Positions 6,873 to 49,471 are shown, counted from the first letter of the stretch. The stretch is 64,000 bases of DNA from Actinomycetota bacterium (GCA_021324595.1 JAJPIV010000048.1:1876-65875), one strand, 5' to 3'. Program-made: numbers and translations. Notes: a model not told the origin generated them from the letters alone.

Positions 6873-7421
6873 CTACGAGCCCGGCCGCCACCGCGCGGGC
6901 AGGGAGGCCCAGACGGCCTTGCCGCCGGAGCCGACCAGCAGCCAGCCCCAGGCGAGCGCCAGCGCCTGCACGACCTGCAGGCCCCGGCCCGACTCGGCCC
7001 CCGGGTCGCCGCAGCGCGGCACCGGGCCGACCGGGTTCTCGTCGGTGACGACGCAGACCACCCGGCTGCCGTGCCACTGCCAAGCCAGGCAGATCACACC
7101 CGGCGGTTCCCCGGGGCCGGGCGCGCCCGGCCCCGGGGAACCGCCGTGCCGCGCCGCCGGACTGCGGCCGTGCACGATCGCGTTGGTCACCAGCTCGGAG
7201 GCGACGGTCACGGCGTCCGCGGCAAGGTCCTGCAGCTGCCAGGACGCGAGCGTGCGCGCCGTGAAGCCCCGGGCGGCCCGGGGCGACTCCGGGCAGGCCC
7301 CGAGCCGGATCACGCGGTGCCGGGCGGCGGGCCCGCAGGCCAGGTCGGGCACGCACGGCAGGTCCGCCCGCCGCGGTCCGCCCGGCCCGGCCGCCCTGGC
7401 CGGGCCGGGCGCGTCCCGCAT
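6873..7421 (-). CDS. ATP-binding protein, anti-sigma-factor/SpoIIAB-like HATPase
   Basis: ASELVTNAIVHG and ESGRGLQVVQALALAWGW motifs. The 360-aa track ORF was trimmed to ATG 7421 (MRDAPGP...). Typical size is 150-180 aa. Confidence 0.75.
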   Translation of the reverse strand: MRDAPGPARAAGPGGPRRADLPCVPDLACGPAARHRVIRLGACPESPRAARGFTARTLASWQLQDLAADAVTVASELVTNAIVHGRSPAARHGGSPGPGAPGPGEPPGVICLAWQWHGSRVVCVVTDENPVGPVPRCGDPGAESGRGLQVVQALALAWGWLLVGSGGKAVWASLPARWRPGS

Positions 7422-7504
7422 CCGCGTGAATGTCACAAAGCGCCCTTCGTGGCCCTCGCCCCCGGTCCTATACGGGACCGTTCGTCCGTTACGATGCCAT
7501 TGAT

Positions 7505-7516
7505 CATGTGCACATG
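7505..7516. promoter_or_regulatory. Perfect 12-bp palindrome CATGTGCACATG in a divergent intergenic region
   Basis: Read directly from the sequence. It lies between the HATPase-like gene (start 7421, minus) and the DUF397 gene (start 7617, plus). Confidence 0.3.
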
Positions 7517-7616
7517 CAAGTGCTGTAGCACAAGCAGCGTCACCTGCGGCCACCGCCTTCCCAGGACCCCGGGAGAAGCGCCGACGGGCGAATGTTCTAG
7601 GTGAGAGGGACCGACG

Positions 7617-7856
7617 ATGGACGAAGCGAGGGCGGATGACGCCTACAACGGCATGCGGGCATCCGCGATCCGGATTGCGCGGTGGCGGAAGAGCCGGCAC
7701 AGCAACTCCAGCGGCGACTGCGTGGAGACGGCCAGCCTGCCCGCAGGCGGCATGGCGGTCCGCAACTCCCGGCACCCCGACGGCCCGGCGCTGATCTTCA
7801 CCCGGAGCGAGTGGGAGGCGTTCGTGCGCGGCGTCAGGGACGGCGAGTTCGACTGA
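7617..7856 (+). CDS. DUF397 (BldB-like) small protein
   Basis: WRKSRHSNSSGDCVE...VRNSRHPDGPALIFTRSEWEAFVRGVRDGEFD is the canonical DUF397 pattern. Confidence 0.9.
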   Translation: MDEARADDAYNGMRASAIRIARWRKSRHSNSSGDCVETASLPAGGMAVRNSRHPDGPALIFTRSEWEAFVRGVRDGEFD

Positions 7857-7981
7857 CCGCGGCCTGCCGCGCCGCGCCCGGCCCGCCGCCCCGCGCCAGG
7901 GTGGCGGGCCGCCACTACCGGGCCGCCACCGCCGGGCCGGATGACACCACCGCAATGGCGGCGCGATAGAGTGGTCCGGCG

Positions 7982-8003
7982 CGTGCCATCAACCTGTGGC
8001 ACG
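7982..8003. promoter_or_regulatory. Inverted repeat CGTGCCA-N8-TGGCACG upstream of the XRE gene
   Basis: 7-bp perfect arms read from the sequence, about 65 nt upstream of start 8069. Confidence 0.25.
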
Positions 8004-8068
8004 ACGATGGCCGCGTATGGGACACTTCGGTAGCCTGATCTCATTGGCGGCGTAAAAGGGGAGGGCGC

Positions 8069-8971
8069 ATGGTCGCAGCCGCGGACTCCGCTGAAGGTGG
8101 CGTCGTCAGCCTGGCCCACGGCGCCAGCAGCCCCACGGCGCTGCGCATCCTGCTCGGCGCCCAGCTGCGCCGCCTCCGCGAGTCCCGGCGGATCTCGCTC
8201 GAGGAGGCCGGCCGGGTGATCCGTGCCTCGCACTCCAGGATCAGCCGCCTGGAGACCGGCCGGGTCGGCTTCAAGGACCGCGACATCGTCGACCTGCTCA
8301 CCTACTACGGCGTCACCGACGAGCAGGAGCGCGAGGCGCTGCGGGCGCTGGCCAGCAGGGCGAACGCGCCCGGATGGTGGCACGACTACTCCGACATCCT
8401 GCCGCCGTGGTTCGAGGCCTACGTGGGGCTGGAGGAGGCGGCCACCCAGATCCGCACCTACCAGGTCCAGTTCATCCCCGGGCTGCTGCAGACCGGGGAC
8501 TACGCCCGGGCGGTCACGCTCCTGGACCACGCCGAGAAGCCGAGCCGCGAGATCGACCGGAGAGTCAGCCTGCGCCTGGCCCGGCAGGTCGTGCTCACCA
8601 GGCCGGACCCGCCGACCATCTGGGCGGTGCTCGACGAGGCGGTGCTGCGGCGGCCGCTCGGCGGCCCGGCCGTGATGCGCGCGCAGCTCAAGCACCTGCT
8701 CGAGCTGTCGCAGCGGCCCAACATCACCATCCAGGTGCTCCCGTTCGCCGCGAGCGCCCAGGCGACGGCGGACGGCCCGTTCAGCATCCTGCGGTTCGGC
8801 GAGGAGGACCTGCCGGACATCGTCTACATCGAGCAGCTCGCCAGCGCCCTTTACCTGGACAAGAAGGAGATCATCGACCGCTACCTGATGGTCATGGAGC
8901 GCCTGTGCATGGCCGCGGCGACGCCTGCCAACAGCGCCAAGACCATCCGCTCGGTGCTCCGGCAGATCTGA
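8069..8971 (+). CDS. XRE-family (WhiJ-like) transcriptional regulator with DUF5753-type C-terminal domain
   Basis: N-terminal HTH (LRRLRESRRISLEEAGRVIRASHSRISRLETG) and a long C-terminal domain typical of actinomycete WhiJ paralogues. RBS AAAAGGGGAGGG. Confidence 0.85.
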   Translation: MVAAADSAEGGVVSLAHGASSPTALRILLGAQLRRLRESRRISLEEAGRVIRASHSRISRLETGRVGFKDRDIVDLLTYYGVTDEQEREALRALASRANAPGWWHDYSDILPPWFEAYVGLEEAATQIRTYQVQFIPGLLQTGDYARAVTLLDHAEKPSREIDRRVSLRLARQVVLTRPDPPTIWAVLDEAVLRRPLGGPAVMRAQLKHLLELSQRPNITIQVLPFAASAQATADGPFSILRFGEEDLPDIVYIEQLASALYLDKKEIIDRYLMVMERLCMAAATPANSAKTIRSVLRQI

Positions 8972-9646
8972 GCCCGAGCGCCGCTGGGGCGCCTGCGCGG
9001 CTGGGCCCGCGGGGCTCGCCGCCCCGGCGCACGGTCCTGGCCGGCGTAATCCGCTCCGGGGACCGCCCCGGCGGGCCCTGCCGTCGCTCACGGGCGGTGC
9101 CGCCGTCGGCGCGTCCTGCCCGGGGGGCGCCCCGGGCTGACGTGGAACGCCGGGCGCCGCGGGCTTCCCGGGCGCGCCTGCGGCCTCGCGCGGCCCCGCG
9201 CCTTCCCGGGCGCCACCCTGGCCCGCCGGCGCTTCCCAGGGGCCGGCGATCCGCTGCCGCGGTGCGCCTGGCCGACCGCCCGGCAGGGCCTGCCCGCCGG
9301 GGCCGGGACCAGGCTCGCTGGGATGGACCGGATGCGCGTCCGCGTAGAAGATCATCGCGAGCCAGAAGCCGAGCGCGAGCACCGCGCCGATCGGGATCAC
9401 GATCAGCGCCAGGCCGGAACCTGCCATGGGACCGCCCCCCTTCGCCGCCAGCGGCGATGTCCCACGCATGTCCCGTTCCCCGGATCCGGCTCATGATGCG
9501 GCAGGGGACGGCGTGGCGGGAGGTGCGCGCGACAGGACGGGGCAAGGCCGGGCATGCCCGGTGATCCGGCCGGGCCTGCGCGGATGCCAGGGCCAGCCCG
9601 GCCGTGCGGATCCCGGCGGGCCCCGGCGGGCCGTGCGGGGCCGCGG

Positions 9647-41318: not shown

Positions 41319-41798
41319 TCAGCGCACGACGCCGACCAGGTAGCTGAGCTCGTGGAACGCGGCCAGCCGGGCCGAGCAGCGGACGGGCCCGGTCTTGCGC
41401 AGGCGGCCGCGGATCATCGTCCGGTAGGTCCCGGCCTCGCGCAGGCCGCGGTACCGGCCGGTCGCGCGGACCACCCGGAAGTCACCCACCTGCCGGATCG
41501 TGAAGCGGCAGGTCGACGGGTCCGGGCCGGTGATCGTCTCGCCCCGCGGCACGCGCCGGATCCGGATCCGTCCCGAGGGGAACACGATCGTCGCGGTCCG
41601 CCTGACGTAGTGACCCGTGGCGCGGAACGCGCCGCTCGCCGTCACGCGCGCGTGAAGCTGACTCGGCGAGCTGATCACGAACGTGAAGACCTCCCGGCCG
41701 TGGTAGGCCGGGGCCAGCGGGCGCGCCGCCGCCGGCCCCGTGCCGAGCAGCGCGATCGCCGTGGCCGCGGCCAGCGCCGCCGGCAGCCTCATCCGCAT
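41319..41798 (-). CDS. Secreted hypothetical protein (159 aa)
   Basis: Signal peptide MRMRLPAALAAATAIALLGTGPAAA, then a beta-rich mature region. RBS AAGGAGGGAG. Confidence 0.6.
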   Translation of the reverse strand: MRMRLPAALAAATAIALLGTGPAAARPLAPAYHGREVFTFVISSPSQLHARVTASGAFRATGHYVRRTATIVFPSGRIRIRRVPRGETITGPDPSTCRFTIRQVGDFRVVRATGRYRGLREAGTYRTMIRGRLRKTGPVRCSARLAAFHELSYLVGVVR

Positions 41799-41810
41799 CG
41801 GGTGCTCCCT

Positions 41811-41855
41811 CCTTGCCCGGTCCGCCCTTGCCCGGTCCGCCCTTGCCCGGTCCGC
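41811..41855. repeat. Perfect 15-bp tandem repeat x3 (CCTTGCCCGGTCCGC), intergenic
   Basis: Read directly. Ends 13 nt upstream of start codon 41798 on the coding (minus) strand. Confidence 0.9.
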
Positions 41856-41877
41856 GCGGCAGGATCGCCGCGGGACG

Positions 41878-42459
41878 TCACTGAGCCGCCCACCACGCCA
41901 GCGCCGCGCCCGCCATGGCGAGCAGGACGAGCCCGTCCAGCCTGCGCCAGCGGACCACCCGGAGCAGCAGCCCCAGGTGCGCGGCGGGATCCCCGGCGAG
42001 CCCCGGCGCCCCGGGCGGCCCCTCCCGGCCGCAAGCCCGCAGCCCGCGCACGTCGCGCAGCAGGGCGCCGGCCCGTGCCGACCCGTGGGCGAGGCCGATC
42101 GCGGCGGCCAGCCACAGCCCGGCCACCGGGCCCGGCATCGCCGGGATCGCGGCGGGCAGGACCGCGAACCCCGCGTAGGGGTTCCGGGTGAGGAAGCCGG
42201 GGCCGAGGATCGCGCCCCAGACCAGCGCCCGCCGCCGGGGCGACGCGCCGATCATGAACTCCTGCGGCACCTGCCAGCGCCGGCCGGGCGGAGCCGGCCC
42301 GGGCCTGCCGGAGAGCTCCGCGGCGCCGTACCAGGCCGCGTAGGCGACCACGACCGCCAGGGCCAGCCACCGCGGCCACGGCCGCGCCGCCGCCGGCAGC
42401 GCGGCGGCCGGCAGCGACAGCGCGGCTCCCAGGAGGAGCCAGGCGATCACCGCGGGCAC
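41878..42459 (-). CDS. Integral membrane protein (193 aa), unknown family
   Basis: At least 4 hydrophobic segments. GTG start 42459. Follows the mau-like genes on the same strand. Confidence 0.55.
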   Translation of the reverse strand: MPAVIAWLLLGAALSLPAAALPAAARPWPRWLALAVVVAYAAWYGAAELSGRPGPAPPGRRWQVPQEFMIGASPRRRALVWGAILGPGFLTRNPYAGFAVLPAAIPAMPGPVAGLWLAAAIGLAHGSARAGALLRDVRGLRACGREGPPGAPGLAGDPAAHLGLLLRVVRWRRLDGLVLLAMAGAALAWWAAQ

Positions 42460-42543
42460 CGTGTAGGCGCTCAGGACCAGCGCCGGGCCGCTGAGCCTGC
42501 CGACCGGCAGGCCGGCCGCCAGCGAGGCGGCCGAGTTCGCGCC

Positions 42544-42621
42544 TCAAGGGGAGTACGCCTTGGAGTATCCGTTGACGGCCGCGAGCAGCACCACCACCGC
42601 GGCCAGGATCGCGGCGGTCAC
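42544..42621 (-). CDS. 25-aa hydrophobic mini-ORF (VTAAILAAVVVLLAAVNGYSKAYSP), or a frameshifted C-terminal TM anchor of the upstream gene
   Basis: GTG 42621 overlaps the upstream stop (GTGA). Contains a single clean TM helix. Confidence 0.35.
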   Translation of the reverse strand: MTAAILAAVVVLLAAVNGYSKAYSP

Positions 42622-43235
42622 CGCGGGCCTCCCGGAGCACCGCCGGCGGGCGCGCCGCCGGCTGCTGGCGCGGGGCCGCCTCCCGTCACGGGGCCGCCTC
42701 CCGTCACGGGGCCGCCGCCCGTCACGGGGCCGCCGCCCGTCACGGGGCCGCCGCCGTCGGCCTGCCCGGCGATCTGGAGGCGGCGCTGCTCGGCGCGGAT
42801 GTCCGCGGGAGTCTGGCAGCCGCAGCAGATGCACCGGGACAGGCAGGTGCACCAGCGCAGGCAGCCGCCGGGGCCGATGCAGTCGTAGCAGACCTTGTAG
42901 CCCAGGCCGCGGCCCAGGTTCATGCAGGCGATCCAGCTGCCCTGCGGCCACTCGCACCGATAGCCCTGGGCGTTGAAGCACTGGCTGGTGAACGAGCCCT
43001 TGCACAGGTGGTGGTGCGGCGGGCAGCCGACCTCCGGGCAGCCGTCGCAGCGCCGTGTCGGGCCGCACCAGCACTGGGCGGCCCGCGGGCGGCGCCCGGC
43101 GGCCAGCGCGGCCAGCCCGGCGGTCCCTCCGCCGACGGCGCGGCGCAGCGCGTCCCTGCGGCTCAGGCCGCGGGCCATCCGCTCGGCCAGCGAGCCGATC
43201 GCGGCGTCCAGGCCGGACAGCGGCCGGCGGCTCAC
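42618..43235 (-). CDS. Tat-signal, cysteine-rich protein resembling the methylamine dehydrogenase light chain (MauA-like)
   Basis: Long twin-arginine leader (…LDAAIGSLAERMARGLSRRDALRRAVGGGTAGLAALAAG). 18 Cys in about 88 aa, with CPPHHHLC, SWIAC and YKVCYDCIG segments. (GGGPVT)x4 tail. GTG 43235 overlaps the upstream stop. Confidence 0.6.
   Translation of the reverse strand: MSRRPLSGLDAAIGSLAERMARGLSRRDALRRAVGGGTAGLAALAAGRRPRAAQCWCGPTRRCDGCPEVGCPPHHHLCKGSFTSQCFNAQGYRCEWPQGSWIACMNLGRGLGYKVCYDCIGPGGCLRWCTCLSRCICCGCQTPADIRAEQRRLQIAGQADGGGPVTGGGPVTGGGPVTGGGPVTGGGPAPAAGGAPAGGAPGGPR
42672..42743. repeat. 18-bp tandem repeat x4 plus a partial fifth copy, coding (GGGPVT)n
   Basis: Read directly: GGGGCCGCC(T/G)CCCGTCAC units. 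Confidence 0.9.
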
Positions 43236-43882
43236 CGGGCGCCGCCTGCGCTGCCGATCGCGGCGACGCCCGGCCCGCGCGCGACAGCGCCCGGCCGCCC
43301 CGCCTCCGGCTCCCCGGCATCGCCGGCGGCCTCGGGCTCGCGGCACTGGCGGGCGAACGCCCGCACCTGGTCGAGGCGGACCACCGAGCCCGCCGCCCGG
43401 ACGATCCCCGCGGCGTCGACCGCCACCAGCAGCGGCGTGCCCGAGACCTGGTAGGAGTCCAGGCCGTCCCGCGCCGCGGGCCGTCCGATCTCCTCGGCCG
43501 TGGACTGGAACGGCCCGGAGATCGCCAGGTACTCCGGCGGGTCCGAGATCAGCAGCAGCACCCGCAGGCCGTCCAGGTCGCCTTCGGCCCGGGCGGCGCC
43601 GAGCGCCGCGACCAGCTCCTCGCAGGCGGGGCACGTCGGGTCGACGAAGCCGAGCAGGAGCGGCGTGCCGTCACCGGGCCGGACCCAGCGGACCTCCGGC
43701 TCCCCCGGCCTGGTGTAGGCCAGGGCCGCGGCCCGGGAGCCGGCCGGCGGGCCGAGCCCGGCCGCCTGGCCGTCCCCGGTGAGCAGCCGCCCGAGCTGCC
43801 GGAACAGGACGATCACGAGGACGCCCAGCGCGCACAGCAGCGCCCACTGGGCCACCACCACGTACAGCGGGACCTCGATCAC
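43232..43882 (-). CDS. Membrane-anchored thioredoxin-fold thiol:disulfide oxidoreductase (MauD/TlpA-like)
   Basis: N-terminal TM helix and a FVDPTCPAC (CxxC) motif. GTG 43882 overlaps the mauE-like stop (GTGA). Confidence 0.75.
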   Translation of the reverse strand: MIEVPLYVVVAQWALLCALGVLVIVLFRQLGRLLTGDGQAAGLGPPAGSRAAALAYTRPGEPEVRWVRPGDGTPLLLGFVDPTCPACEELVAALGAARAEGDLDGLRVLLLISDPPEYLAISGPFQSTAEEIGRPAARDGLDSYQVSGTPLLVAVDAAGIVRAAGSVVRLDQVRAFARQCREPEAAGDAGEPEAGRPGAVARGPGVAAIGSAGGAR

Positions 43883-44418
43883 CGGGACCTCCCCATCCCG
43901 TCCGGGCCGCCGGCGGCCCGGCCAGCCTTCGCGGCGCTGTACGTCGCCGCGGCCACCAGCAGCGCGCCGCCTGCCAGGGCGAGCTGGCCGGGCAGCCCCA
44001 CCGCCGCGCCTGACCCGCGGCCCGGCGCGGCGACCAGCGCCGCCGCCAGCGCGATGAGCACGGCCCGGACCGTCGCGGCGCGGCCGAAGCCGCGCCGCGA
44101 CAGCGCGCCGAAGCAGCGGCACGGGCTCCCCGGGTGGCGCGCCTGGCCGATCGCCGAGACCGCGACCAGGCAGCACGCGATCGCCAGCACGGCAAGGTTC
44201 ACCCAGGCGGCGGTGCTGACGAGGCTGGCGCCGCCGGCCGTGAGCTCGGTGATCGCCGCCAGGCGGGCGGCGGCCCGCGACAGCCGCGCCGGGGTGCCCG
44301 GCGGGGCGAACAGGGCGACTGCGGCGCTGAACCCGCCGATGTCGGCGAGCTTCGCGGCGCCCGCGGCGAGCAGCAGCACGGCCAGGGCGGCCTTGAGGCC
44401 AAGGGCGATCAGCGTCAT
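43879..44418 (-). CDS. MauE/DoxX-family redox-associated membrane protein
   Basis: 4 TM segments and a SPCRCFGAL (CxCFG) motif typical of MauE. Confidence 0.8.
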   Translation of the reverse strand: MTLIALGLKAALAVLLLAAGAAKLADIGGFSAAVALFAPPGTPARLSRAAARLAAITELTAGGASLVSTAAWVNLAVLAIACCLVAVSAIGQARHPGSPCRCFGALSRRGFGRAATVRAVLIALAAALVAAPGRGSGAAVGLPGQLALAGGALLVAAATYSAAKAGRAAGGPDGMGRSR

Positions 44419-44421
44419 CGG

Positions 44422-45039
44422 TCACGCCCCGGGCCCGCCGGCCCGCGCCGCCGCTGGCCCGCGCAGCGGCCTGCGCCGGGCCGTCGGCGGCGGCCCGGCC
44501 GGCAGCGCGGCCACCTGGCGCAGCTTGGCGAGCTGCCAGTCATGGTTGACCAGGCTGGAGCCGCGCACGATCCCGCCCGAGTCCACGAAGATCGCGAATG
44601 GCATGACGCGGACGTTGTACCGGGCATACAGCGCCGGCGACCCGGCGACCACGGGGATCTCGGCGAGGCCGAGCTCGGCCAGGGCGGCCCGCGCCATCGC
44701 GGAGGGGCCGCGGGTCAGGACCACGATCTCGGGAGGCGCCGGGTCTCGGCCCGGGGCGGCGGCGAGCAGCTCCCGCAGGCCGTCGGCCACGGACGGGAAC
44801 GACCGCAGCGAATGATCGGTGAACATGATCAGCTGCAACGGGCCGCGCGGCGGCGACGTGCGGGGCCGGCCCGTCGCGTCCGCCAGCGTCCACGCGGGCG
44901 CGCGGCCCCCTCTGGGCAGCCCGTCCCGCTCCAGCGCCGCGGCTCCGGACAGCGCCACCTGGCCCAGCCCGAGCAGGGCGTACCCGCCGGCCGCGCACAG
45001 CAGCGCGGCGACCGCGAGGAACGCCAGCGCGCCGGTCAT
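44422..45039 (-). CDS. Membrane-anchored thioredoxin-fold protein lacking the CxxC motif (MauD/TlpA-like paralogue)
   Basis: The fold pattern parallels the CPAC paralogue (…YNVRVMPFAIFVDSGGIVRGSSLV…), but the active-site region reads FTDHSLRSF. Start set at ATG 45039 because GC3 is higher from there; the track start is 45093. Confidence 0.6.
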   Translation of the reverse strand: MTGALAFLAVAALLCAAGGYALLGLGQVALSGAAALERDGLPRGGRAPAWTLADATGRPRTSPPRGPLQLIMFTDHSLRSFPSVADGLRELLAAAPGRDPAPPEIVVLTRGPSAMARAALAELGLAEIPVVAGSPALYARYNVRVMPFAIFVDSGGIVRGSSLVNHDWQLAKLRQVAALPAGPPPTARRRPLRGPAAARAGGPGA

Positions 45040-45207
45040 CGCCCGCGTGCCAGCACCGATCCGCCGCCATTCACCACCCGGGAATCCAATCATTGTGATT
45101 ATTCGGTGGTCAAGCGGGCGCGCTTGGCTCCCCGGGAACTCAGCGGCCGCGCGGGAGTAGTGCCCGGTGACCTTTGGCCTTGCCCCGCACGTGGGTACAC
45201 CGATGGA

Positions 45208-45696
45208 ATGACGGGGGCGCGCAGTGGCGACCGGGACGGAGGAGCGACGGTGGTGGCCAACGAGGGAGAGCTGGTCGTGGTCGGCGTCGATGGGTCACCG
45301 GAGTCGGCCCGGGCGCTGGCCTGGGCGGCCAGGTACGCCAGGGCGGTGGGGGCCAGTGTGCGGGCGGTGCTGGCCTGGCACTACCCCGCGCCGGCCGGCC
45401 CGGCGCCGATCGGCGTGGCGCCGGCCGCGGTCACCTCGGAGGTGGAGCAGGCCAAGCTGGACGAGCTCCGCGCGGTGATCGCCGAGACGCTGGGCCAGTC
45501 GCCGCAGGTGCCGGTCGAGCCCAGGCTGGCCTACGGCCATCCGGCGCAGGTGCTGATCGCCGAGTCCGCCGGGGCCGACCTGCTCGTGGTCGGCAGCCGT
45601 GGCCACGGCGGGTTCACCGGGATGCTGCTCGGCTCGGTGAGCACGCACTGCGTCACCCACGCCGCGTGCCCGGTCACCGTGGTGCGCGCCCGGTGA
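45208..45696 (+). CDS. Universal stress protein (UspA family)
   Basis: [10 protein letters not shown]…[35 protein letters not shown] (ATP-binding G-2x-G-9x-GS motif). Confidence 0.9.
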
Positions 45697-48179
45697 GCGC
45701 GCTCACGCAGGCTCAGGCCCGCGCGCTGGACGCCTACTGGCGCGCGGCGAACTACCTGTCCGCGGGCCAGATCTACCTGATGAGCAACCCGCTGCTCACC
45801 GAGCCGCTGCGCCCGGAGCACATCAAGCCGCGGCTGCTGGGGCACTGGGGCACCACGCCGGGCCTGAACTTCATCTGGGCGCACCTGGACCGGGTCATCT
45901 CGCTCGGCGACCTGAGCATGATGATCGTGATCGGCCCCGGCCACGGCGGCCCGGCGGCCCTGGCCAACACCTGGCTGGAGGGCAGCTACTCGGACGTCTA
46001 CCCGAGCGTGCCGCGGGATGCCACGGGGATGGCGATCCTCATGCGCCAGTTCTCGTTCCCCGGAGGGGTGCCGAGCCACGTCGCGCCGCAGACGCCCGGA
46101 TCGATCCACGAGGGCGGTGAGCTCGGCTACTCCCTCGCCCACGCGCACGGAGCGGCGTTCGACAACCCGGACCTGATCGTGGCGTGCGTGATCGGCGACG
46201 GAGAGGCCGAGACCGGGCCGCTCGCGGCGAGCTGGCACTCCAACAAGTTCCTGGACGCGGTGCACGACGGGGCCGTGCTCCCCATCCTCCACCTCAACGG
46301 CTACAAGATCGCCAATCCGGCCGTCCTGGCCCGGATCGGCGCGGAGGAGCTCGACGCGCTGCTGCGCGGCCACGGCTGGCGACCGTGGTACGTCGGCGGC
46401 GACGAGCCGATGGCGATGCACGAGCAGATGGCCGCCGCCCTCGACGAGGTCGTGGCGGAGATCCGGCGGATCCAGGCGGAGGCCCGGGGCGGCGGCGCGG
46501 GCCGGCGCGGCGGCGCGGGCCGGCGCGGCGCCCTGGGCGGGCGGGCCCGGCCGGCCTGGCCGATGATCGTGCTGCGCACCCCGAAGGGCTGGACCGGCCC
46601 GGGCGAGGTGGACGGCCTGCCGGTGGAGGGGACGTGGCGGTCCCATCAGGTGCCGCTCGGCGAGGTCCGGACCAACCCCGCCCACCTGGCCCAGCTTGAG
46701 CGGTGGCTGCGCTCCTACCGCCCCGGGGAGCTTTTCGACGAGCAGGGCCGCCCCCGCCCGGACCTGCTCGCCCTGGTGCCGGCCGGCGAGCGCCGACTCG
46801 GGATGAGCCCGCACGCGAACGGCGGCCTGCTGCTGCGCGACCTCGACCTGCCGGGCCCGCGCGAGCACGCGGTGGCGGTCGGGGCACCGGGGGCGCGCGC
46901 CTCGGCGCCGACCGAGGTGCTGGGCGCCATGCTCGCCGACGTCATGCGGCGCAACCTGCGGACGGGGAACTTCCGCGTCTTCGGCCCGGACGAGACCGCC
47001 TCCAACCGGCTCGGCGCTGTGATCGACGTCACCGGGAAGGCGTGGCAGGCGCAGGTGCTGCCGGTCGATGAGAACCTCGCGCCCGACGGCCGGGTCATGG
47101 AGATCCTCTCCGAGCACACCTGCCAGGGCTGGCTGGAGGGTTACCTGCTCACCGGCAGGCACGGGCTGTTCTCCTGCTACGAGGCGTTCATCCACATCGT
47201 CGATTCGATGGTGAACCAGCACATCAAGTGGCTGAAGGTGAGCCGCGGCCAGCCCTGGCGGCGTCCGGTCGCGTCGCTGAACTACGTCCTCGCCTCGCAT
47301 GTCTGGCGCCAGGACCACAACGGCTTCTCGCACCAGGACCCGGGCTTCATCGACCATGTCGTGAACAAGAAGGCCGAGGTGATCCGCGTCTACCTGCCGC
47401 CGGACGCGAACTGCCTGCTCGCCGTCGCCGATCACTGCCTGCGCAGCAGGAACCTGGTCAACGTGATCGTGGCGGGCAAGCACCCGACGCCCGACTGGCT
47501 GGACGCCGAGGCCGCGGTGCTGCACTGCGCCCGCGGCGCGGGAATCTGGGAGTGGGCGAGCAACGACCGGGTCAACCGCAGCGGCGTCGCCGAGCCGGAC
47601 GTGGTGCTCGCCTGCGCCGGCGACGTGCCCACGATCGAGGTCCTCGCCGCGACGAGCATCCTGCGCCAGCACCTGCCGGGCCTGCGGGTCCGGGTGGTCA
47701 ACGTCGTCGACCTGATGAAGCTGCAGCCGCCGTCGGAGCACCCGCACGGGATGAGCGACGCCGAGTACGACGCGCTGTTCACCCCCGACAAGCCGGTCAT
47801 CTTCGCCTACCACGGCTACCCGTGGCTCATCCACCGGCTCACCTACCGCCGCGCCGGCCACGACAACCTGCACGTGCGCGGGTACAAGGAGGAGGGCACC
47901 ACCACGACGCCCTTCGACATGCTCGTGCTGAACGACATGGACCGGTTCCACCTGGTGATGGACGTGATCGACCGGGTTCCCGGCCTGGGCCCGAAAGCGG
48001 CGGCCCTGCGCGGCGCGATGTGCGACGCCCGGGCCAGGCACACCCGCTGGATCCGCGAGCACGGCGAGGACATGCCCGAGGTCGCCCAGTGGACCTGGCC
48101 GGGATCCGCGCGCCGGCGGGCGGCCGACGCCGGGGCCAGGACCGCGGGGGGCCGCGCGCTGCACGTCCCGGTGCCGTGA
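45693..48179 (+). CDS. xfp: Xylulose-5-phosphate/fructose-6-phosphate phosphoketolase
   Basis: [13 protein letters not shown] and EGGELGYSL motifs. 828 aa. The GTG overlaps the usp stop (GTGA). Confidence 0.9.
46491..46526. repeat. Perfect 18-bp tandem duplication (GGCGGCGCGGGCCGGCGC x2) inside xfp
   Basis: Read directly. Encodes [12 protein letters not shown]. Confidence 0.9.
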
Positions 48180-49471
48180 CCCCTGGGCCCGCCGCCCCGG
48201 GCCCCGCGCCGGACGGCCCCGGCCTTCCGGTGCTGGTCGTCAACGCGGGATCGTCCAGCCTGAAGCTCTCGGTGGTCGCCGCCGACGGCACGCCCGCCGC
48301 GCGCGCCGACCTGGAGCGCTGGGACGGCGACCCGGACGCGCCGCAGGTCGGCCGCGCCCTGGCCCGCCTCGCCGGCGCGGCGCCGGCCGCGGTCGGGCAC
48401 CGCGTCGTGCACGGCGGCAGCGCGCTCGTCTCCCCGATGCCGATCGACGACGCGGTGCTCGCGCAGATCGCCGCGCTCACGCCGCTGGCCCCGCTGCACC
48501 AGCCGCGGGCCCTGGCCGGAATCGCCGCCGCCACGGCGGCCCTGCCCGGGCTGCCGCAGGTGGCCTGCTTCGACACCGCGTTCCATGCGACGATCCCGCC
48601 GGAGGCGGCCACCTACGCGCTGCCGGCCGACTGGCGGGAGCGGTTCGGGCTGCGCAAGTTCGGGTTCCACGGGCTGTCGCACGGGTACGCCTCCGCCCGG
48701 GCGGCGCGGCTCCTCGGGATCGCCGAGGGCGGCGCGTTCCGGGTGGTGACCTGCCACCTGGGCGCCGGCTCGTCGCTCGCCGCGGTCCGGGACGGCCGCA
48801 GCGTGGAGACCACCATGGGGTTCACGCCGCTGGACGGGCTCGTGATGGCGACCAGGTCCGGCAGCGTCGACCCCGGGCTGATCGCCTGGCTGGCAGACCA
48901 GGGGCGGATCCCCCCCGCCGAGCTGGCCGCCGGCCTGGAGCGCCGGTCCGGCCTGGCCGGCCTGGCCGGCCTGCCCGACGGCAGCGGGGACTTCAGGGCG
49001 GTCGCCGCCGCCGCCGAGCGCGGGGAGCCGGCGGCGCGCCTTGCGCTGGCGGTGCACGCCCACCGCCTCGTCGCGGCCGTCGCCGCGATGGCCGCGGCGA
49101 TGAACGGCCTCGACGCCCTCGTGTTCACCGGCGGGATCGGCGAGCACTTTCCGCCGCTGCGCGCCGCCGCCGCCGCCGGGCTCGCCTTCCTCGGCGTGCG
49201 CCTGGACCCGGAGCGCAACGCCGCCGCGCGCGCCGACGCGGACATCTCGGCCGACGGGGCGCGGGTGCGGACCCTGGTGGTGACGGCCCGGGAGGACGCG
49301 GAGATCGCGCGCCAGGTCGCCGGCGTGCTCGGCGCGGTCAGCGGCGGCTGGTCCAGCGCGGCCCCACCAGCGCCCACTCAAGCGCCCACAGCGACATCCG
49401 GCGCCGGTCCAGCCACCACCGGACCAGGCTCGCGACCAGCAGGAGCACGACGGCGAACCCGGCCAGCGTGA
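48176..49471 (+). CDS. ackA: Acetate kinase
   Basis: [12 protein letters not shown] and FTGGIGEH motifs. The GTG overlaps the xfp stop (GTGA). Extra C-terminal tail of about 45 aa. Confidence 0.85.

Follow-up and report, generated by a model that had tools for sequence, protein, structure and literature searches.

An actinomycete operon linking MauE and two MauD homologues to a cysteine-rich protein with a twin-arginine-type leader

The mau and aau clusters of Paracoccus, Methylobacterium, Pseudomonas and others encode a MauE with a CxCFG motif and a membrane-anchored MauD with a CPxC motif, the gene order being E-D-client and the junctions tight or overlapping. As client they encode the light chain (MauA or AauA) of methylamine or aralkylamine dehydrogenase (MADH, AADH), which is small, rich in disulfides and preceded by a long twin-arginine leader with an ExxAR motif in its n-region. 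Only recently was MauE put forward as a third major enzyme of disulfide formation in bacteria, on the basis of two proteins tested in Escherichia coli (Gonzalez et al., bioRxiv 10.64898/2026.03.05.709764): MauE from two phyla, Calditrichota and Thermodesulfobacteriota, replaced DsbB in this host, and the CXC motif was essential. In the same work, F-G, a Lys and a Glu were reported as conserved neighbours of CXC, the Lys and the Glu near the proposed quinone site, and MauA was present in only about 10% of the MauE-bearing species. In Streptomyces, clusters found by decRiPPter contain mauE, and in one family also mauD, without the rest of mau, beside the gene of a Cys-rich product (PMC7794033). 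The occurrence of MauE and MauD outside mau clusters, next to Cys-rich substrates, is already known from these two reports. Here we analyzed a locus of this kind in a soil Actinomycetota bacterium (GCA_021324595.1 JAJPIV010000048.1:1876-65875). The window, i.e. the whole stretch of DNA analyzed, comprises 64,000 nt with a G+C content of about 75%, and positions are counted from its start. At 41319-45093 it carries genes for a MauE, two MauD homologues and a Cys-rich protein with a twin-arginine-type leader, their putative client, followed by a microprotein and further genes. What is new is the superfamily of the client with its predicted fold, and the presence of a dead MauD paralogue, a microprotein and a membrane protein as parts of a fixed module.

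MauE and the MauD homologues are coupled to the client gene

In the direction of transcription, the locus starts with a Cys-less, membrane-anchored MauD-like thioredoxin-fold protein (44422-45093 or 44422-45039, with a start at 45093 or 45039), followed by MauE, a predicted DsbB-like membrane thiol oxidase (43879-44418), a membrane-anchored MauD-like thioredoxin-fold protein with the motif CPAC (43232-43882) and the Cys-rich client (42618-43235 for the whole gene). All open reading frames listed for 41319-45093 in the initial annotation of this DNA lay on the minus strand, and their motifs and coordinates were found as placed there. So were the GTGA start/stop overlaps at three junctions (43879-43882, 43232-43235 and 42618-42621), among them the GTG start of the CPAC gene overlapping the stop of MauE and the GTG start of the microprotein overlapping the stop of the Cys-rich gene. 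When seven window proteins were searched by tblastn on 83 related loci, the order Cys-less MauD paralogue, MauE, MauD, Cys-rich protein, microprotein and membrane protein was recovered in about 80 of them, the Cys-less paralogue and the membrane protein each being present in 80. The same order occurred in distant members, including the one in the cultured species Nonomuraea typhae and loci with unrelated flanks, and because of this recurrence the arrangement is far beyond chance. MauE and both MauD homologues are translationally coupled to, and co-inherited with, the client with its twin-arginine leader. The proposal of a coupled orphan MauE/MauD cassette, with the substrate gene directly downstream of E and D as in mauE-mauD-mauA, was thus borne out, and its gene order proved to be conserved. 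Between loci the client is 65-84% identical, as compared to 45-60% for the helpers.

Searches by tblastn for mauB, mauG, amicyanin, mauF and mauJ gave no match in the window (best E value 0.076) nor in the 83 loci (±8-10 kb), and Pfam annotation of the neighbours revealed none of these either. This agrees with the earlier remark that heavy chain, MauG and amicyanin are missing from the window, and extends it to the related loci. The module differs in this respect from the mau/aau clusters, with which it shares the homologous MauE and MauD, the E-D-client order, the tight junctions and the ExxAR-bearing leader. It further differs from them in that the slot upstream of mauE, taken by mauB there, is occupied by the Cys-less MauD paralogue, and in having two additional conserved membrane proteins downstream of the client.

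MauE matched the Pfam family PF07291 above the gathering threshold (E 8e-13, 49.3 bits versus a cut-off of 27, profile positions 2-126 of 128), which settles the family assignment given in the initial annotation. Aligned with canonical MauE from eight real mau/aau clusters, taken from plasmid records (hhalign probability 94.9%), K23 in the first transmembrane helix (TM1), E58 in TM2 and C100-R-C102-F-G fell onto the canonical Lys, Glu and CxCFG. The active-site loop reads P-C-R-C-F-G, and the K, E and CxCFG residues were conserved in 73 family sequences. As judged from the sequence, none of the residues now known to make up the DsbB-like active site of MauE is missing from this protein. Like the generalist MauE of Gonzalez et al. 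(bioRxiv 10.64898/2026.03.05.709764), it is a four-helix membrane protein with CXC and F-G, Lys and Glu that occurs without other mau genes, and for which a thioredoxin-fold partner is expected. Unlike that enzyme, it is locked in an operon with a MauD-like partner, a dead paralogue and one client, and it belongs to the Actinomycetota, whereas the proteins tested came from Calditrichota and Thermodesulfobacteriota.

Both thioredoxin-fold proteins are, from their sequences, homologues of MauD and not equivalogs, in line with the mauD-like gene of the earlier proposal. The CPAC protein aligned with MauD over its full length with an hhalign probability of 99.1% (E 4e-19) and the Cys-less protein with 98.5% (E 3e-15), each over about 160-180 columns; the two were mutual paralogues (99.2%). 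Their sole NCBIfam match was TIGR02661 (MauD), at E 3.4e-6 and 26.7 bits for the CPAC protein, far under the equivalog cut-off of 188.6 bits, and at E 0.003 and 17.1 bits, again under this cut-off, for the Cys-less one. At the position where MauD has xP(S/T)CPxC the former reads D-P-T-C-P-A-C, with DPTCPsCE conserved in the family, and it has the N-terminal anchor and the RQxG motif (here RQLG) in common with MauD. The latter reads D-H-S-L-R-S-F at the active-site position, so that both cysteines are lost, and its single Cys is located in the membrane anchor; DHSLkSFP and SSLVNhdWQ are its conserved motifs.

The client compared with the MauA light chain

The client gene comprises a leader of the twin-arginine translocation (Tat) type (residues 1-53, 43077-43235), a mature domain (residues 54-160, 42756-43076) and a Gly/Pro-rich tail (42618-42755), all on the minus strand. 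The leader reads S-R-R-D-A-L, then GGTAGLAALA and then P-A-x-A, an A-x-A-type cleavage site. R26 was invariant and R27 nearly so across the client superfamily, and D10, E18 and R22 of the n-region were conserved, D10 and R22 to at least 90%. By motif, h-region and cleavage site, the client is predicted to have a Tat-type leader; the Pfam TAT_signal model gave weak matches in 4 of 56 superfamily members. The leader profile resembled the Tat leader of NapA, and it matched MauA leaders with hhalign probabilities of 92-95%. As controls, the leaders of NapA and PhoD (from E. coli and B. subtilis) scored 29.3 and 25.4 against this profile, as compared to 22-29 for MauA leaders. Since they score about as well, the likeness to MauA is mostly that of a generic Tat signal. 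The n-region ExxAR motif common to client and MauA leaders scored 15.1 versus a shuffle null of 4.7 ± 1.2 (0 of 150 shuffles), its register being offset by four residues with respect to RR. Of the long MauA-like leader seen in the initial annotation, the RR and ExxAR features do resemble those of MauA, but the overall similarity is one that generic Tat leaders display as well.

The mature domain is not demonstrably MauA and, in the sequence comparisons and structural models that we applied, no test identified it as a quinoprotein light chain. PF02975 matched neither the window protein (E ≤ 1) nor its 37 close and 56 diverse relatives (E ≤ 10). In profile searches of the PDB, the close-family profile reached the P. 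versutus light chain (3c75_L) only at E 2.6, and the broad 56-sequence profile retrieved no light chain even at E ≤ 10. Against a reference alignment of 12 MauA/AauA sequences from real clusters the mature domain scored 16.5, a value that 16 of 100 column-shuffled controls reached or exceeded and that lies within their null distribution (13.8 ± 2.8). A full-length hhalign match to MauA (probability 93-95%) was rejected because the aligned region was the leader. The MauA of Indioceanicola matched several family genes in tblastn (E 1.5e-6 to 6e-4); these matches were rejected as well, as they depend on the leader and on a GS(F)TSxCFN segment that is absent from most superfamily members. The motifs CPPxxxL and S(W/F)xxxC(Y/F)N, likened to MauA in the initial annotation, sit in the segment that most members lack. 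Its description of the mature protein as MauA-like, which it had itself tied to a profile match with MADH/AADH light chains, could therefore not be retained: no such match was found, the score lay within the shuffle null and there was no light-chain fold match. Weak Pfam matches to DUF5604 and Cementoin were judged to be noise.

W101 and D118 are invariant in the superfamily. Only in a weak, non-significant local hhalign alignment did they fall onto Trp57 of tryptophan tryptophylquinone (TTQ) and onto the catalytic Asp76, respectively. The BLAST alignment instead set a variable F/S/A position of the client on Trp57, and no conserved counterpart of the second TTQ tryptophan, Trp108, was found in the client family.

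AlphaFold2 modeled the client with a pLDDT of 89.4 and a pTM of 0.81 from the 108-sequence superfamily alignment, and with a pLDDT of 46 (27-39 in the Cys-rich core) from the 37-sequence close-family alignment. The mature domain is predicted to contain beta-hairpins and a C-terminal amphipathic helix. The best Foldseek match of the client model in the PDB had E 1.3, with TM scores of at most 0.27 and no match at E ≤ 0.001. Although many light chains have been solved, none was among the 50 listed of the 75 PDB matches at E ≤ 10, a fold comparison that is limited by the weakness of Foldseek on small irregular disulfide-rich domains. No fold match was found in BFVD either. The product is predicted to be a compact domain of about 11 kDa with nine disulfides, a C-terminal amphipathic helix and a previously undescribed fold.

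The client founds a new superfamily, for which Pfam has no model and no solved structure was detectable as a relative. R26, C63, C78, W101, C116, D118, C119 and C129 were invariant throughout. Close relatives (65-75% identity) formed 109 clusters, all annotated as hypothetical and none with a Pfam domain; in 185,579 species genomes the close family was represented by 78 loci, all from metagenome-assembled genomes of uncultured Streptosporangiaceae, Streptosporangiales or Actinomycetota. When 1.84 billion representatives were searched exhaustively with a profile, 97 clusters at 50% identity were obtained, whose members (130-190 aa) have the same leader and Cys scaffold. Little beyond the close family came from a profile search of 5.8 billion proteins with the superfamily alignment. 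A distant member, WP_157254433.1, is encoded in the cultured Nonomuraea typhae (locus L098), where the module lies on VRLV01000022.1. Our literature search found no description of the client family.

Exactly 18 cysteines lie between residues 55 and 140 of the client, as opposed to 12 in the light chain. The Cys count of the mature part ranged from 12 to 26 in the superfamily and was even in 103 of 108 members, and cysteines were lost in pairs: C66/C131 (phi 0.86), C55/C104, C137/C140 and C135/C138. Even parity and pairwise loss argue for nine disulfides, as predicted from the sequence family, rather than for metal binding. Metal binding, considered possible in the initial annotation, finds no support in the HHH run, which relatives do not conserve. 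Both features that this annotation had pointed out, the motif CPPHHHLC and the (GGGPVT)4 tail, are present but unique to this genome. In relatives the motif reads CP(S/P)G(Y/H)xLC and the protein ends about 45 residues earlier, and the GGGPVT tail was absent from all aligned relatives. The tail consists of (GGGPVT)4, GGGPAPAAGG... and the stop codon, and its 18-bp tandem repeat was detected by TRF at 42671-42755 (period 18, 4.7 copies, 98% matches). It adds about 45 codons to the Cys-rich gene, reaching the start of the microprotein, while the same stretch is a short intergenic spacer in relatives; it therefore looks like a recent repeat expansion or a read-through.

Oxidative folding of the client and alternative explanations

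We consider it probable, with some reservation, that the locus represents an oxidative-folding module that is complete in itself and centres on a single client. The client precursor would be exported, by the Tat system judging from its invariant RR leader, and the membrane-anchored CPAC protein would then oxidize its cysteines. MauE would re-oxidize the CPAC protein through its C-R-C loop and pass the electrons on to the membrane quinone pool, and the Cys-less MauD paralogue, itself redox-inactive, may assist the client or MauE as a holdase or adaptor. The steps up to the re-oxidation by MauE follow from homology and one preprint, the remainder from co-conservation. Co-conservation with the microprotein and the 193-aa membrane protein, hereafter Mem193, also suggests that the product probably stays with these two at the membrane or the cell wall. 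Such a scheme is akin to DsbA/DsbB and VKOR-Trx, where a quinone-linked membrane thiol oxidase re-oxidizes a thioredoxin-fold carrier, which in turn oxidizes exported clients. These systems are, however, general-purpose with many clients, their membrane components are non-homologous to MauE and their operons have no dedicated client gene.

Some points weigh against oxidative folding, for which the evidence is computational. Tat normally exports folded proteins, yet the client would gain its disulfides outside; MauA poses the same puzzle. The very high conservation of the client implies a specific function. The disulfide geometry of the client is that of a prediction, and the roles of the Cys-less paralogue, the microprotein and Mem193 are guesses from co-conservation. 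Furthermore, we infer the direction of electron flow through MauE and MauD, and an earlier study, as cited in bioRxiv 10.64898/2026.03.05.709764, suggested that MauE is a reductase.

This last suggestion would suit a reductive cassette, which keeps the exported cysteines reduced for a metal (Cu, Zn or Fe-S-like) in a metallothionein-like or copper-storage protein. Tat export would fit proteins that fold or load their cofactors before export, the C-x-C and C-C motifs of the client resemble metallothioneins, and CopD and YceI genes lie near one distant locus. The copper-gene neighbourhood is confined to that locus, however, the HHH run is not conserved and a ferredoxin-type CxxCxxCxxxCP pattern is missing from the client. 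In addition, cysteines that are even in number and lost two at a time typify structural disulfides and not metal ligands, and MauE complements dsbB in a CXC-dependent manner (bioRxiv 10.64898/2026.03.05.709764). A reductive function thus appears rather unlikely to us. We would still call unlikely, if a little less so, a secreted disulfide-knotted toxin or bacteriocin, or a product like a peptide that is synthesized ribosomally and modified post-translationally (RiPP), with the microprotein and Mem193 as immunity or export factors, as proposed for candidate RiPP clusters with mauE in Streptomyces. In the clusters flagged there by decRiPPter, mauE, in one case with mauD, indeed lies beside the gene of a short precursor containing at least 8 Cys (PMC7794033). 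Moreover, genes for small membrane proteins that adjoin a secreted peptide typically confer immunity, and transposases flank the module in two distant loci. But these precursors have 57-66 aa and no RR leader (PMC7794033), and they are unrelated in sequence to the client, which has 160-205 aa, a Tat leader and a predicted globular fold, and the accessory genes differ as well. With a mature part of about 107 residues, the client is not one of the short (<100 aa) leader-core precursors that mark the decRiPPter clusters. Its conservation exceeds that of its helpers, and close relatives keep it in stable chromosomal synteny with usp-xfp-ackA, which does not resemble a fast-evolving toxin. Neither a protease nor an ABC exporter or a modification enzyme was conserved in the module, and a PADLOC defence scan gave no match.

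Two further explanations keep a link to TTQ. The client might be a diverged MADH/AADH light chain with a Trp-derived quinone at W101/D118, whose partner would be encoded elsewhere. In favor of this are the mauE-mauD-client order as in mau clusters, the similar long RR leader with the common ExxAR motif, the tblastn matches to MauA with a collinear CPPG...C(F/Y)N...Y-x-D-C-x-G...C-x-C-L pattern and the weak local alignment of W101 with TTQ Trp57 and of D118 with Asp76. We nevertheless regard it as very unlikely. PF02975 gave no match in 93 member scans, nor did the broad PDB profile retrieve a light chain at E ≤ 10. The mature-domain score could not be distinguished from shuffles, and the BLAST matches are largely borne by a leader to which generic Tat leaders are alike. 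Despite a pLDDT of 89 the model did not match the solved light chains in Foldseek, an equivalent of Trp108 is lacking, and no mauB or mauG was found within ±8-10 kb at the 83 loci. Equally improbable in our eyes is an offshoot of the TTQ (mau) system whose product would differ from a plain disulfide knot. A MauG-independent protein-derived cofactor or crosslink, e.g. at W101/D118, would then be part of a membrane complex with the microprotein and Mem193, a new extracytoplasmic device of actinomycetes for redox reactions or electron transfer.

Read as an oxidative-folding module, the locus offers a natural, genetically closed example from actinomycetes, in which MauE and a MauD-type carrier come with a dead paralogue and a single identifiable client for which nine disulfides are predicted, and a homologous module is found in a cultured species, Nonomuraea typhae. 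It could serve for studying client recognition by MauE and MauD, the role of Cys-less MauD paralogues and the reason why such clients carry Tat leaders. It reveals neither a new amine dehydrogenase nor a new cofactor.

Accompanying genes and further observations

The single-TM microprotein (42544-42621, minus strand) has 25 aa here and up to about 58 aa elsewhere. It was found by tblastn in 75 of the 83 loci, always between the Cys-rich and the membrane genes (e.g. L001 10510-10569 and L098 8495-8671). While its TM part drifts, its C-terminus is a near-invariant NG(Y/F)xKA(Y/H)SP, with the stop codon directly after ...SP in 75 of 75 loci; in Nonomuraea typhae it ends with ...SGYGKSDSP. Automatic gene calls often missed this gene or gave it a varying length (25-58 aa).

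Mem193, a polytopic membrane protein of 193 aa (41878-42459, minus strand), has no conserved Cys; PGxWQVP, WGxxLGPGxxTR, H125, R129, R135 and W171-R172-x-x-D175 are invariant. No relative was found in Pfam or in the PDB, and an assignment as MauF was rejected (hhalign probability 4.8%). The product of the last gene (41319-41798, minus strand) has 159 aa, among them two conserved Cys, and its N-terminus is signal-like. This gene was present in 63 of the 83 loci at only 25-50% identity, not found in L004, in the Nonomuraea locus L098 or in other distant loci, and without a family match in Pfam and NCBIfam; its association with the module is looser.

In two distant loci, L004 (6146-7261) and L100 (3433-5481 and 10919-12129), the module was flanked by transposase genes (DDE_5, IS110, rve), a hint at joint mobility of the six genes. 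In a very distant member, L101 (3205-6712), the components were kept in a permuted order, namely MauE, two thioredoxin-like genes, the client, a 62-aa gene and a 205-aa gene, adjoining an extracytoplasmic function (ECF) sigma factor and a GerE regulator. Another atypical MauA/MauE arrangement was observed on a Thermomicrobiota megaplasmid, the Thermomicrobium roseum plasmid (L088). It carries two short MauA-like genes without a recognizable long Tat n-region (1780-2232 and ~7001-7282) and a 596-aa MauE-domain fusion protein (7407-9197), with no heavy chain annotated nearby.

The usp, phosphoketolase (xfp) and acetate kinase (ackA) operon (45094-49471, plus strand) is divergent from the module. 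This neighbourhood was kept in close relatives (L001-L003) and not in distant ones, which makes the linkage syntenic rather than functional. The spacer at 45094-45170 was unusually AT-rich: AATAATCACAATGATTGG. A promoter and terminator scan found nothing in this DNA of 75-80% GC. In the spacer that separates the last gene from the Mem193 gene, a perfect 15-bp direct repeat in three copies (41811-41855), GCGGACCGGGCAAGG on the coding strand, lies just upstream of a strong AAGGAGG ribosome-binding site; the repeat could be a regulatory or attenuator-like element.

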